64,000 bases of DNA from Escherichia phage UB. The notes under the pieces were generated by a model. It had not been told where the DNA came from. It searched no databases and worked only from the letters and a program-made list of their open reading frames with translations. Shown one piece after another: positions 8,907-11,687 of the stretch (position 1 is the stretch's first letter; each line of letters begins with the position of its first letter). Position numbers and translations under genes: made by a program. Location: the sequence record MH383160. One strand, 5' to 3'.

Positions 8907-9278
8907 TTATGACATACGCTTATTATGAATGGAATTATGAATGGATTTTAAATAATTATATAATTTTATCAATCCACTACCAGTAGCTACAAACAGTAGT
9001 GCTGTTGGTATCATACATCCAAACATGGTTATTAATTCATGTATTTCCATACCATCACTATTTGGTCCCACATCAAATATAACAACCAAAACAACACCTA
9101 AAATGCTTAGACAATAATATCCCATAAAGACCATAAAAGTGATATATCCGGCACTTGATTTAATATTACATAACATATTATACACTGGATTAATACAGAA
9201 GAAGTATAATAACCATACCAGTGTTCCAGTACTGAACATAATGATTGAAATAATGGAAAATATCTCACGGTAACTCAT
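8907..9278 (-). CDS. small multi-pass membrane protein
   Basis: Strongly hydrophobic 123-aa ORF. Confidence 0.6.
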   Translation of the reverse strand: MSYREIFSIISIIMFSTGTLVWLLYFFCINPVYNMLCNIKSSAGYITFMVFMGYYCLSILGVVLVVIFDVGPNSDGMEIHELITMFGCMIPTALLFVATGSGLIKLYNYLKSIHNSIHNKRMS

Positions 9279-9279
9279 A

Positions 9280-9642
9280 TTATTTCCTCATACCCAAACG
9301 TTGGTGGATTTCAGAGATCTTTATATACAATAGTACCACAAGGTGCAGTACTAAACAACATATAATTACGGCTAATACCAATGAACATATCATAAGACCG
9401 AAGGTTATTGTATTCAAAGATGATGTGAACAGTCCAATTATTAATACAATAAAACCAAAATTGAATACTGTACCCAACACAGTATATGCTGGACTATATC
9501 TCTTTTGGATTACATCATATATATTTGATAATGGTCGCTTATGGAAGTACTTCCCAATGCACACGAATGCATTCAGTGAGAAGATAAATGTATACGCCAT
9601 TACTAGTAATTGACCAACGAAAGATAATTCTATCCCGTTCAT
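9280..9642 (-). CDS. small membrane protein
   Basis: Hydrophobic; start taken at internal ATG (9642) preceded by AAACGAGG, abutting the upstream stop. Confidence 0.55.
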   Translation of the reverse strand: MNGIELSFVGQLLVMAYTFIFSLNAFVCIGKYFHKRPLSNIYDVIQKRYSPAYTVLGTVFNFGFIVLIIGLFTSSLNTITFGLMICSLVLAVIICCLVLHLVVLLYIKISEIHQRLGMRK

Positions 9643-9643
9643 A

Positions 9644-10012
9644 CTAACCTCGTTTACGTTTTTTAATTGTACTGTGCATCTTTTCGAAATAGGGAACCAA
9701 AACATATTGAACAGTTTGCCAGATAACCATTAGATTATGCACTGCACCACCAAGGATACCAAACACTAGAACAATAATTGCCATAATAGGATCACCGTCT
9801 ACCATACCCCATTTAAAGATATGTAAAATCCAAGCAATGACTAGACAAAATAAACTAAGCCAATACGTAATGAAAAATCCGGCTTGTAATTCATAATCAT
9901 CAGCAATTTCATCGTATACCGTTTCTAAAAATGATACACAAAAGAATTTACCAATTATAACCACAGTACTAATAAACAGCATAGCAGTTAAGATAATAAG
10001 AGCAATTTCCAT
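9644..10012 (-). CDS. small membrane protein
   Basis: Hydrophobic 122-aa ORF, tightly packed. Confidence 0.6.
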   Translation of the reverse strand: MEIALIILTAMLFISTVVIIGKFFCVSFLETVYDEIADDYELQAGFFITYWLSLFCLVIAWILHIFKWGMVDGDPIMAIIVLVFGILGGAVHNLMVIWQTVQYVLVPYFEKMHSTIKKRKRG

Positions 10013-10326
10013 TACATCCCTCGTTTACGCTTTTGATTGCGTCTAAATTCAGTTAGTCCACGGCTAATCGGCGGCATCAGACTACATAAAAAAGTAACAG
10101 TTGTTGGTAGTAACATCAAGTCAATCATTGCAGTGTTATCTGGTGGATCAAAAACCAAAAAATACACACAAGAAACACTAATAATGGTTGAACCGATAAA
10201 AGGAATACAAAATTCTTTTATCTGTTTTTCAACATAATCAAACATCTTGAGTACAAATAAAAATCCAACCCAACACATAATGAAATAGAATGAATACAAC
10301 GTGTAAATCAATGTTACGATATCCAT
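10012..10326 (-). CDS. small membrane protein
   Basis: Hydrophobic; start overlaps upstream stop. Confidence 0.6.
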   Translation of the reverse strand: MDIVTLIYTLYSFYFIMCWVGFLFVLKMFDYVEKQIKEFCIPFIGSTIISVSCVYFLVFDPPDNTAMIDLMLLPTTVTFLCSLMPPISRGLTEFRRNQKRKRGM

Positions 10327-10664
10327 TAGTACCTCGCATCAGGAACTTTAGCACGTAATTTATGAACGACTGGGAACAACAACAAACTTACATATGCAAT
10401 AGTTGAACCCCAATAGAATACTAATACAATTGGTTCACCATTAGAACGGAAACCTCTACTAATCATTGAGTAGTGAATAATAGGCATAATCATCGCCATA
10501 CCAAACCATGCGTGTAATTTTAATTGCAGCATGTTATCAGCGATGAATACTGAAATTGGTCGTTTAAAGAACCACATCAGAAAGTAGAATCCAGCACTAA
10601 TAATATAGTACAAAGTACTAACTTTCATATACCACGGCAGTAAATCAATAAAGTACTCCATCAT
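10326..10664 (-). CDS. small membrane protein
   Basis: Hydrophobic 112-aa ORF. Confidence 0.6.
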   Translation of the reverse strand: MMEYFIDLLPWYMKVSTLYYIISAGFYFLMWFFKRPISVFIADNMLQLKLHAWFGMAMIMPIIHYSMISRGFRSNGEPIVLVFYWGSTIAYVSLLLFPVVHKLRAKVPDARY

Positions 10665-11008
10665 TCCTCCGGTATCTTATTTCGAAGTTCAATCATAACA
10701 CAACAAATTTTAATGGTCAATATAAAAGTTAAACATATCATCCCAAGTGTGCCGTAAACTGCGGAAAAAGCTGGTAGTACCTTTCCTGTGAGTGTTGCTA
10801 CAATACATGCAATCAATGTTGATGCAAACAACGATTGATTAATGGCAGAATTCATAAAATCTTCACCATTACGTTTATAGAATTGTCGTTTAAAATACCA
10901 TCCTAGAAACATAACTACCCAAAATGATACATAAGTTGTTAGAATAATCCCTGCAAGTGAATGTGCAACTGAACTACTCCTTAAAAACTCAAGATAAGCT
11001 TCAAACAT
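10661..11008 (-). CDS. small membrane protein
   Basis: Hydrophobic 115-aa ORF. Confidence 0.6.
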   Translation of the reverse strand: MFEAYLEFLRSSSVAHSLAGIILTTYVSFWVVMFLGWYFKRQFYKRNGEDFMNSAINQSLFASTLIACIVATLTGKVLPAFSAVYGTLGMICLTFILTIKICCVMIELRNKIPEE

Positions 11009-11358
11009 TAGAAGTCTCCGCGAATTTTATCTCTACCATGAATAATGAGATGGATTAAGTATACAACTAACCAAATGAACAACCCAAAGAATACAATATA
11101 TTGTGAGATTGAGTTCAAGTGAGGATTAGCACAATAAATTAAGTGTGCCATAAGACCAACAATTGCAAACAAACCTTGAACAAGTGTGTAAAGAACTAGT
11201 GATGAATTCCTCACTGGATACAGTTTAAAAACAATTTTCTTTTTAAAATACCATAGTACTACAACTAGTGCATGATAAAAGAAAAAACCAAAAAGATAAA
11301 TCAAAGTAATACTAATCATTGTATCTGATTTAAAAAATTCTAACATTAGAATCCCCAT
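11008..11358 (-). CDS. small membrane protein, paralog of 11346..11687
   Basis: Shares ITLIYLFGFFFYH..LWYFKKKIVFKLY with neighbour. Confidence 0.65.
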   Translation of the reverse strand: MGILMLEFFKSDTMISITLIYLFGFFFYHALVVVLWYFKKKIVFKLYPVRNSSLVLYTLVQGLFAIVGLMAHLIYCANPHLNSISQYIVFFGLFIWLVVYLIHLIIHGRDKIRGDF

Positions 11359-11687
11359 TTAAAGTTATCACGAGCTTTAATAATAAAATACATAGTACAC
11401 ACCAATAACCAGACGATTAGTCCTGAAAACACAACATATTGTGTAATGTGTGGTGTATTATCAATTTGTAACATGTAAATCACATATGTCATCACACCAA
11501 ATAAAATAAACCCACCTTGTATAATGCTATATACAACTAAGAATACATTATCATACGAATACAATTTAAAAACAACTTTCCTTTTAAAATACCAAAGACT
11601 AATTACAATTGAATGATAAAACAAGAATACAAACATGTATATCAGTGTAATACCAAGCATTATATTAGATTCAAAAAACTCACGCAT
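11346..11687 (-). CDS. small membrane protein, paralog of 11008..11358
   Basis: ITLIYMFVFLFYH..LWYFKRKVVFKLY. Confidence 0.65.
   Translation of the reverse strand: MREFFESNIMLGITLIYMFVFLFYHSIVISLWYFKRKVVFKLYSYDNVFLVVYSIIQGGFILFGVMTYVIYMLQIDNTPHITQYVVFSGLIVWLLVCTMYFIIKARDNFKWGF

Follow-up and report, generated by a model that had tools for sequence, protein, structure and literature searches.

A tandem array of diverged small inner-membrane protein paralogs beside an NrdC.10-like ATPase gene in Escherichia phage UB and related jumbo phages

What could a virulent giant phage do with eight small hydrophobic proteins encoded one after the other? The question is raised by a 64,000-nucleotide (nt) stretch of DNA from Escherichia phage UB (sequence record MH383160), hereafter called the window, in which positions 8907-11687 of the minus strand carry eight co-oriented open reading frames (ORFs) in series. 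The window shares 98-99% identity with the Escherichia phages 121Q, vB_EcoM_G17 (G17), Sharanji and CRJP21, all of them Asteriusvirus jumbo myoviruses (~350 kb), and all eight ORFs are annotated as 'hypothetical protein' in the 121Q and G17 GenBank records. Members of the Rak2/121Q group of jumbo phages are phage-therapy candidates and often persist in bacterial isolates, yet no role has been assigned to the majority of their early genes. The locus is identified here as an array of tandem genes, shaped by gene birth and death, for one family of small inner-membrane proteins that is specific to phages. As a result, 11 'hypothetical proteins' of the window now form a single family with its own signature, a fixed position and a history of duplication and loss, and have become a tractable target. 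The novelty is modest, in that a newly delineated family and its array architecture are added within a known kind, that of phage accessory membrane genes.

The genes were numbered along the window, so that g8 is the first and g1 the last gene of the array. In this order, all on the minus strand, they are g8 (11346-11687; 113 amino acids, aa), g7 (11008-11346; 112 aa), g6 (10661-11008; 115 aa), g5 (10326-10661; 111 aa), g4 (10012-10326; 104 aa), g3 (9644-10012; 122 aa), g2 (9280-9642; 120 aa) and g1 (8907-9278; 123 aa). Protein lengths refer to annotated starts preceded by a ribosome-binding site. That is, the start of g2 is the ATG annotated in both 121Q and G17, and a longer version beginning at 9705 was not adopted. 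Five of the seven junctions are 1-nt overlaps of stop and start codons and the other two are 1-nt gaps, and a GAGG/GGAG Shine-Dalgarno (SD) box with proper spacing lies ahead of every start. The grand average of hydropathicity (GRAVY) of the eight proteins ranges from 0.61 to 1.07, g5 being the least hydrophobic. Only 18 of the 140 ORFs in the window have a GRAVY above 0.6, and a run of eight such ORFs was obtained in none of 100,000 permutations of the ORF order. Since the ORFs are moreover coupled and each preceded by a ribosome-binding site, the hydrophobic run is real and not a product of chance, and the original prediction, made from the letters of the window, of an operon-like run of 100-125 aa proteins with overlapping or abutting starts and stops was borne out in both respects.

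A peculiarity of the junctions is that, in g2 to g8, the SD box of the following gene is encoded by the C-terminal codons of the upstream gene, inside its conserved basic/acidic tail. Examples are KRKRG (...CGAGG...), IPEE (CCGGAGGAA) and RGDF (CGCGGAGAC). The conservation of the tail may thus in part reflect a dual-coding constraint imposed by the embedded SD boxes.

Are these proteins related to each other? BLASTP among the window proteins recovered g7 and g8 as the sole clear paralogs (48%), plus weak links such as that between g1 and the protein encoded at 19266-19604. The presence of near-duplicate pairs had been claimed from the sequence, which holds for g7/g8 alone (48-51% identity) and was overstated for the rest, as these are distant paralogs. 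Relatedness became apparent at the level of motifs. In an alignment of the eight array proteins, the three proteins encoded at 18569-19604 and RaK2 gp219-226, two motifs are common. Among 53 sequences sharing less than 60% pairwise identity, they read [IVL]-[GL]-[KW]-[FY]-F-[KC] at the end of the first transmembrane (TM) segment, TM1, and [LI]-x-x-[LFI]-[HR]-x-[KN]-[IL]-[PK]-x-[KR]-[KR] at the C-terminus; the Phe of the first motif, F39 in g6, is present in 98% and the His or Arg of the second in 97%. Deviations are seen in g4, where motif 1 is degenerate (GFLFV) and motif 2 has Q in place of [IL], and in the motif 2 of g8 (ARDNFK).

The relationship was examined further with profile hidden Markov models (HMMs). 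When each subfamily was left out of the model in turn, the omitted members scored 4.3-13.9 standard deviations (z) above shuffled sequences, except g5 (z = 2.2), the most divergent member, the RaK2 ortholog of which (gp223) reached z = 6.9. The left-out members outscored most, not all, of the unrelated membrane proteins of the window. As z-scores against shuffles are generous for TM proteins, because shuffling destroys the helix periodicity, two other lines of evidence matter here, namely the profile-profile comparisons and the uniform length of the database matches. In the former, hhalign aligned the two clades of the family over their full length with a probability of 94.6% (E = 6.5e-8), and gave probabilities below 0.5% for controls with two unrelated three-TM proteins of the window (28789-29115 and 27963-28340). 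The two clades are FFC...H, with g1, g2 and g3, and FF[KR]...R...IP[DE], with g5 to g8 and the proteins encoded at 18569-19604; g2 and g3 are paralogs of each other, as are g7 and g8. The residue following FF covaries with the [HR] of the tail, Cys being paired with His in 21 of 21 cases (C25 and H113 in g3), and Lys or Arg mostly with Arg. Within the GKFFC subfamily, to which g3 belongs, the G, K, F, F and C as well as the tail His are invariant over 16 sequences with identities down to 19%. The covariation could mark a Cys/His contact or metal site, or simply the history of the clades. Taken together, the motif and profile comparisons show that all eight array proteins and the three at 18569-19604 are one family of diverged paralogs.

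When the family HMM was run over all window ORFs of at least 40 aa, it retrieved exactly 11 members. The second cluster at 18569-19604, which had been listed with a shared F-K-Y-K-x-L-F-x-R-x-Y-P motif, is thus real and consists of three minus-strand genes: c2a (19266-19604; 112 aa), c2b (18915-19262; 115 aa, TTG start), which carries F-K-Y-K-T-L-F-N-R-M-Y-P, and c2c (18569-18937; 122 aa, GTG start), whose orthologs begin at an internal Met (114 aa). Two further clusters, at 27963-29415 and 38441-39285, had been listed as well. Their products are indeed hydrophobic, but membership in the family was ruled out for both by HMM E values above 1, and the two hhalign controls, taken from the first of these clusters, were below 0.5%.

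How far does the family extend? A HMMER pass over 1.84 billion representative proteins yielded only 47 clusters (at 50% identity) with E<=1e-3. With the exception of one 56-aa fragment all are 89-130 aa long, most align over nearly the whole profile, and every sampled genomic context is that of a Rak2-like phage. A word-indexed homolog search with the family alignment gave 27 close relatives only. In IMG/VR, 95 pattern matches to the GKFFC subfamily were found, of which only 121Q and RaK2 were confirmed. Searches of isolate phages by tblastn returned nothing for the distant member P0045 and one weak match, in phage EJP2, for P0058. Seven PHROG families of unknown function (19454, 19046, 19285, 27618, 26405, 33258 and 27396) match array genes end to end with E = 1e-51 to 1e-70, g2 has no PHROG match, and g6 also matches phrog_16874, labelled 'membrane protein, moron/host takeover', at 7e-6. 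These PHROGs and the 'hypothetical/membrane protein' GenBank entries of 121Q, PBECO4, G17 and RaK2 are the same proteins as those of the array. The grouping as one family is new, the databases splitting these proteins over at least seven unlinked PHROGs, and no description of the family as one unit or of the array was found in the literature and databases.

Scans of the eight proteins and their neighbours with Pfam, PHROGs and PADLOC revealed no informative family. For 59 family members, the Pfam scan gave sub-threshold TM matches scattered across 38 unrelated families. No defence model of PADLOC-DB was satisfied; a match of g7 to PycTM (E = 0.029) is noise, and the matches of the neighbouring ATPase were limited to the P-loop.

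All eight proteins are predicted to contain TM helices, in agreement with the multi-pass architecture originally proposed. Each shows three Kyte-Doolittle peaks, weakest in g5, the TM calls being based on Kyte-Doolittle windows, a positive-inside count and one AlphaFold2 model. Summed over the 11 window members, Lys and Arg residues number 7 in the N-terminus, 34 in loop 1, 4 in loop 2 and 45 in the C-terminus, i.e. 79 inside versus 11 outside, and the N-terminus and loop 2 are acidic in the family. This bias predicts an orientation with the N-terminus out and the C-terminus in (N-out/C-in), which would therefore place both conserved motifs on the cytoplasmic face of the membrane. The AlphaFold2 model of g6, computed from a 59-sequence alignment, consists of three long helices (mean predicted local distance difference test score 84.6, predicted template modelling score 0.65), with a short N-terminal helix, TM1 at residues 13-38, a loop helix at 42-53, TM2 at 55-74, and TM3 running into the tail at 77-110. 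A fold search of BFVD gave one ortholog-like match. The remaining matches were weak (E about 1-10), and several of them were membrane proteins of Rak2-like phages (CBB, 121Q, PBECO4, BF and GAP32). A profile search of PDB sequences gave no match at E<=10. Together with the tight coupling and the shared promoter-like site described below, the hydrophobic helices, the charge bias and the modelled helices bear out a multi-pass membrane operon.

The predicted architecture fits that of class I holins of the lambda S type, which like the array proteins have ~105-125 aa, three TM segments, an N-out/C-in orientation and a charged, basic C-terminal tail. This raises the question of whether the array has a holin-, antiholin- or pinholin-like function in the timing of lysis; a holin/antiholin-like function was among those suggested by the original prediction. 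Consistent with such a function, Rak2-like phages have an endolysin of the SAR (signal-arrest-release) type that would need a holin or pinholin (PMC5259590), one of the 59 family members has a weak match to Pfam Phage_holin_2 (E = 6e-4), and an entry named 'Holin' appears at rank 21 of the BFVD search (E = 9.6). However, the other 58 members match no holin family, their sub-threshold matches being those scattered over 38 unrelated TM families, and no holin family model matched any window protein at E<=1. Furthermore, there is no sequence relationship to class I holins and no lysis-cassette context. No endolysin or spanin gene lies nearby, the neighbours being the ATPase gene, RCC1-like genes and an endonuclease gene, and 11 copies per window are unlike any lysis cassette. 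The transcription signals, which are of an early and not a late type (see below), also count against a holin role, and we consider it very unlikely.

The position of the array is more constant than its content. Directly upstream of it lies a gene for an NrdC.10-like P-loop/AAA ATPase (11753-12523, minus strand), which is ~40% identical to T4 NrdC.10, is widespread in T4-like phages and anchors the locus in all relatives. The census of the family covers the 64-kb window and the sampled loci; sequences of some relatives had been part of the HMM training set, and the informative matches are those of their untrained neighbours. All sampled contexts are tandem arrays and, where flanks exist, the order is ATPase gene, array and convergent RCC1-like genes. 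RaK2 has eight members (gp226 to gp219) after the ATPase gene (gp228). Munch and the sequence L005 have the ATPase gene, four membrane genes, a terminator and convergent RCC1-like genes, with three members in the array and one cluster-2-type gene elsewhere. In L014 the ATPase gene is followed by eight small genes including seven members, in L018 an ATPase gene fragment is followed by an array of six members, and in L012 the ATPase gene is followed by 14 small genes including at least nine members. On two short contigs, four of four genes (L006) and two of four genes (L017) belong to the family. The main array has seven members in PBECO4 and vB_Ec-M-J, as against the eight of the window. Thus, the locus is fixed while the array size varies from about three to at least nine copies among relatives. 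The possibility that T4 itself carries the family beside nrdC.10 was rejected, as an HMM scan of that locus (L008) found no family member. The T4 nrdC.7 neighbourhood resembles the present locus in being hyperplastic, lying downstream of nrdC.10 and containing small accessory ORFs including predicted membrane proteins, but it has no tandem paralog array and none of these proteins is a member of the family.

This constant association suggests an alternative in which the paralogs assemble into a single hetero-oligomeric membrane complex that works with the NrdC.10-like ATPase, for example as a membrane anchor for replication or assembly or as a transport machine. The array always follows the ATPase gene and directly abuts it in Munch, L012, L014 and L018, which makes co-transcription likely; the overlapping stop and start codons suggest translational coupling, and the same cytoplasmic motifs occur in all members. 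A defined complex would, on the other hand, be difficult to reconcile with the strong variation in copy number and membership, g8 being present or absent among genomes that are ~97% identical, or with the frameshift in g4 of the 121Q record. Moreover, T4-type phages keep NrdC.10 without any family member, the array has a promoter-like site of its own in the window, and a second cluster lies 7 kb away. Subunits of a common complex therefore seem a doubtful explanation.

On its other side the array faces a second set of paralogs. The plus strand at 33-8222 carries at least seven RCC1-like/beta-propeller paralogs of 267-401 aa, convergent with the membrane array, and a 74-aa ORF (7070-7294) matches the N-terminal part of these proteins. 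The same pairing of ATPase gene, TM array and convergent RCC1-like array is found in Munch, L005, L012 and L014, and the locus is therefore a meeting point of two paralog families that are both expanding. Upstream of the ATPase gene, the minus strand at 12950-14413 encodes a 487-aa 'endonuclease' with a CapR homology domain; it is present in 121Q, but a different gene occupies the position in G17, and it is probably a mobile/homing-type insert just upstream of the ATPase operon. The arrays of several relatives also contain a conserved soluble ORF of 42-43 aa (MKPEQWIIDDMR...LLxWYVKVL), located at 7170-7295 (minus strand) in RaK2 (L003), 7781-7909 in Munch (L007), 8270-8398 in L005, 6265-6396 in L012 and 1817-1945 in L014. 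It is unannotated in RaK2, and the window does not contain it. Its C-terminus is, however, similar to the first residues of g5, FIDLLPWYMKV (10620-10652; E = 0.05), a likeness that could be the remnant of a fusion or due to chance.

Given such turnover, are the extra copies still functional? Compared with RaK2, the ATPase is 70% identical and the array proteins only 21-39%. Orthology with RaK2 is partly collinear, g2 and g3 both matching RaK2 gp221, and independent duplications have given rise to g7/g8 and g2/g3 here and to gp225/gp226 in RaK2. Against the Asteriusvirus clade of 84% identity (vB_Ec-M-J), the ratio of nonsynonymous to synonymous substitution rates (dN/dS) is 0.10-0.60 for the array genes and 0.05 for the ATPase gene, which means that the array genes are under purifying but relaxed selection. 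Synonymous divergence (dS) ranges from 0.09 in g5 to 1.75 in g1, which points to mosaic histories of the array genes. Within orthologous groups, substitutions pile up in TM2, loop 2 and TM3, and TM1, loop 1 and the tail motif are fixed.

If the region is simply plastic, the extra copies might be functionless or decaying duplicates. Some observations point that way. The g8 gene is missing from PBECO4-type genomes, otherwise ~97% identical, and from the vB_Ec-M-J clade, and is present in ph0011. In the 121Q record (L001 5013-5328, corresponding to window 10012-10326) g4 contains a run of seven T, as opposed to a T6 or interrupted run in the window, G17 and vB_Ec-M-J, and the extra T splits the gene into two annotated 121Q ORFs (gp228/gp229); this reflects an error of sequencing or else a natural frameshift in the homopolymer. 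Truncated genes also occur in Salmonella SD-phage records, which were set aside since these records look fragmented. Against decay stand the dN/dS values of 0.10-0.60 in all eight genes, at dS of up to 1.7, the intact ORFs and SD sites, and the retention of orthologs between genera. Loss of function of the additional copies is therefore extremely improbable.

When would the array be expressed? A sigma70-like promoter (TTGACA-17-TACTAT; 11717-11745, minus strand) precedes the g8 ATG by 30 nt. Ahead of the ATPase gene lies a stronger, TG-extended one (TTGACT-18-TATAAT; 12552-12581, minus strand), and read-through from it would reach the array. A possible internal promoter, a TG-extended sigma70-like site (TTGACC-17-TATGAT; 10692-10720, minus strand), lies in the 3′ end of g6, 28 nt before the g5 start, or 31 nt when counted from the annotated ATG at 10661. 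The second cluster and the gene at 19607-19888 preceding it have a sigma70-like site (TTGACA-17-TATTCT; 19925-19953, minus strand). After g1, a perfect 10-bp palindromic hairpin (8878-8901) coincides with a terminator annotated in the G17 record, and is a weak, possible terminator of the array; as its T-run is on the plus strand only, termination of the array transcript is uncertain. Window-wide, 73 minus-strand sites match the sigma70 consensus in at least 10 of 12 positions, typically 27-50 nt ahead of a start codon, and 40% of them are intergenic versus 10% of the window, a ~4-fold enrichment. The core of T4-type late promoters, TATAAATA, is in contrast depleted, with two matches on both strands versus 13.4 +/- 3.8 expected. 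Both are within 23331-24612, and none occurs within 11 kb of the array. With a sigma70-like promoter 30 nt upstream and no late motif near the array, we infer that its expression is early. The same signals bear on the holin-like function discussed above, as the promoter of the array is sigma70-like and the late core is depleted in the window and absent from its vicinity.

The wider region has a similar aspect. Six minus-strand sites match the sigma70 consensus perfectly (12/12; 17896-17923, 33475-33502, 38416-38444, 39778-39806, 41625-41652 and 59586-59614). They are at or straddle gene boundaries, 31-48 nt before the start codon in five cases and 96 nt in one, and between 8 and 64 kb the minus strand has the appearance of many short early transcription units packed closely together. 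In phage CBB, the equivalent region, which is rich in RpoD-like promoters and short ORFs, has been read as an early host-takeover region, and an ATAAATA motif has been assigned to the late genes (PMC5259590).

What, then, might an early, variable set of membrane proteins be for? Small inner-membrane proteins are known from other phages to keep competitors out. T4 Imm, with two TM helices and 83 aa, is the product of a single-copy gene. T4 Imm and Sp are small, accessory superinfection-exclusion proteins of the inner membrane, expected to be expressed early from host-type promoters. P22 SieA and HK97 gp15, each encoded by a single gene expressed from a prophage, reside in the inner membrane and prevent the DNA of other phages from entering the cell. 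By analogy, the array may work like T4 Imm/Sp or the prophage Sie proteins. With Imm and Sp it would share small inner-membrane products, a T4-related virulent phage as carrier, an expected early expression and an accessory nature, whereas the family differs from Imm in having three TM segments, 100-130 aa and three to at least nine tandem copies. The DNA-entry block of SieA and gp15 provides the mechanistic model proposed here; these proteins are unrelated to the family in sequence as far as tested, and come from single prophage genes and not from arrays in a virulent jumbo phage.

We infer an accessory role of the array in conflict from several features taken together: its signals are of the early type, its products combine a constant cytoplasmic face with a variable membrane/periplasmic half, its copy number turns over, and it is confined to one phage group. 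Superinfection exclusion, already named in the original prediction, or a takeover of the host stays plausible, and would fit the fast divergence of the proteins as well as the early-type promoter and the variable copy number. We tentatively favour the reading, possible though well short of established, that the array is an early inner-membrane panel of inhibitors for superinfection exclusion or counter-defence. In such a scheme the host sigma70 RNA polymerase would transcribe the array early, from its own promoter and by read-through from the ATPase gene, and the tightly coupled ORFs would be translated and their products inserted into the cytoplasmic membrane. All paralogs keep the same predicted cytoplasmic face, made up of [GL]-[KW]-[FY]-F-[KC] at the TM1 end and an amphipathic [LI]xx[LF]-[HR]-x-[KN]-[IL]-[PK]-x-[KR] tail, and vary in TM2, the short acidic periplasmic loop and TM3. 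Each of them would bind a target of its own within the membrane plane. Candidate targets would be injection or entry components used by rival phages, or host proteins that act at the membrane in defence or transport. The panel would protect the infected cell during the long cycle of a jumbo phage and be renewed by duplication, loss and recombination. As circumstantial support, the virulent phages classed as 'persistent' that occur in bacterial isolates show an enrichment of Asteriusvirus (bioRxiv 10.1101/2024.12.31.630880).

Several points weigh against an exclusion or counter-defence panel. The comparison with known superinfection-exclusion proteins, which had been suggested along with the original prediction, was negative. 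The family matches neither Pfam Imm_superinfect nor any Sie family, and does not have the two-TM, ~83-aa architecture; no homology to any exclusion or anti-defence protein was found, and the fold searches gave no informative match. The periplasmic parts are very small, which would limit contact with incoming phage components. The variability of the TM2-TM3 half could reflect weak constraint instead of diversified specificity. dN/dS is below 1 in all array genes, so that whole genes show no sign of positive selection. In addition, the timing has consensus promoter matches as its only basis, the total count of promoter-like sites in the region shows no excess over shuffled sequence, and the direct contact of array and ATPase gene in several relatives could point to a shared housekeeping function.

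Membrane proteins of this kind could also act on host physiology, by forming viroporin-like channels or by inhibiting transporters or the energy metabolism of the host, and could depolarise or re-tune the inner membrane early in infection without excluding other phages. Small multi-pass membrane proteins with early-type promoters would suit this role, the conserved cytoplasmic face suggests that all of them act in the same way, and the match of g6 to the PHROG family labelled 'moron/host takeover' goes in the same direction. A generic effect on the membrane, however, would need neither 11 diverged copies nor a range of three to at least nine copies. Moreover, the strongly hydrophobic TM helices lack conserved polar or charged residues that could line a pore, and no channel family was matched. 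We regard such a takeover of host physiology as unlikely, though still worth considering.

A more specific version of the exclusion or counter-defence panel can be imagined, in which the array is a diversifying 'membrane repertoire'. A constant cytoplasmic handle (FF-[KC] and the [HR]xK[IL]P tail) would be fused to a fast-changing 'reader' made of TM2, loop and TM3, with shuffling at the nrdC.10 hotspot by tandem duplication, loss and inter-phage recombination, and each paralog would neutralise a different target embedded in the membrane, be it a competitor or a defence. A metal or contact site made of Cys and His might be formed by the handle of the C/H clade. This version is speculative and on balance improbable; if true, Rak2-like jumbo phages would have a class of exclusion or anti-defence proteins all their own, new and modular in design. 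More generally, a panel of inhibitors would explain how slow-growing giant phages protect the infected cell, and would supply a set of small proteins aimed at inner-membrane components. If the panel idea is wrong, what remains is a block of accessory membrane ORFs that is large but unremarkable.

Other small paralog sets occur on the minus strand of the window. Three soluble proteins of ~54-60 aa with 35-58% identity are encoded ~1 kb apart at 51226-51390, 52674-52856 and 53454-53633, and tandem soluble paralogs of ~120-142 aa are found at 45772-46200, 46190-46609, 47329-47694 and 47687-48112.

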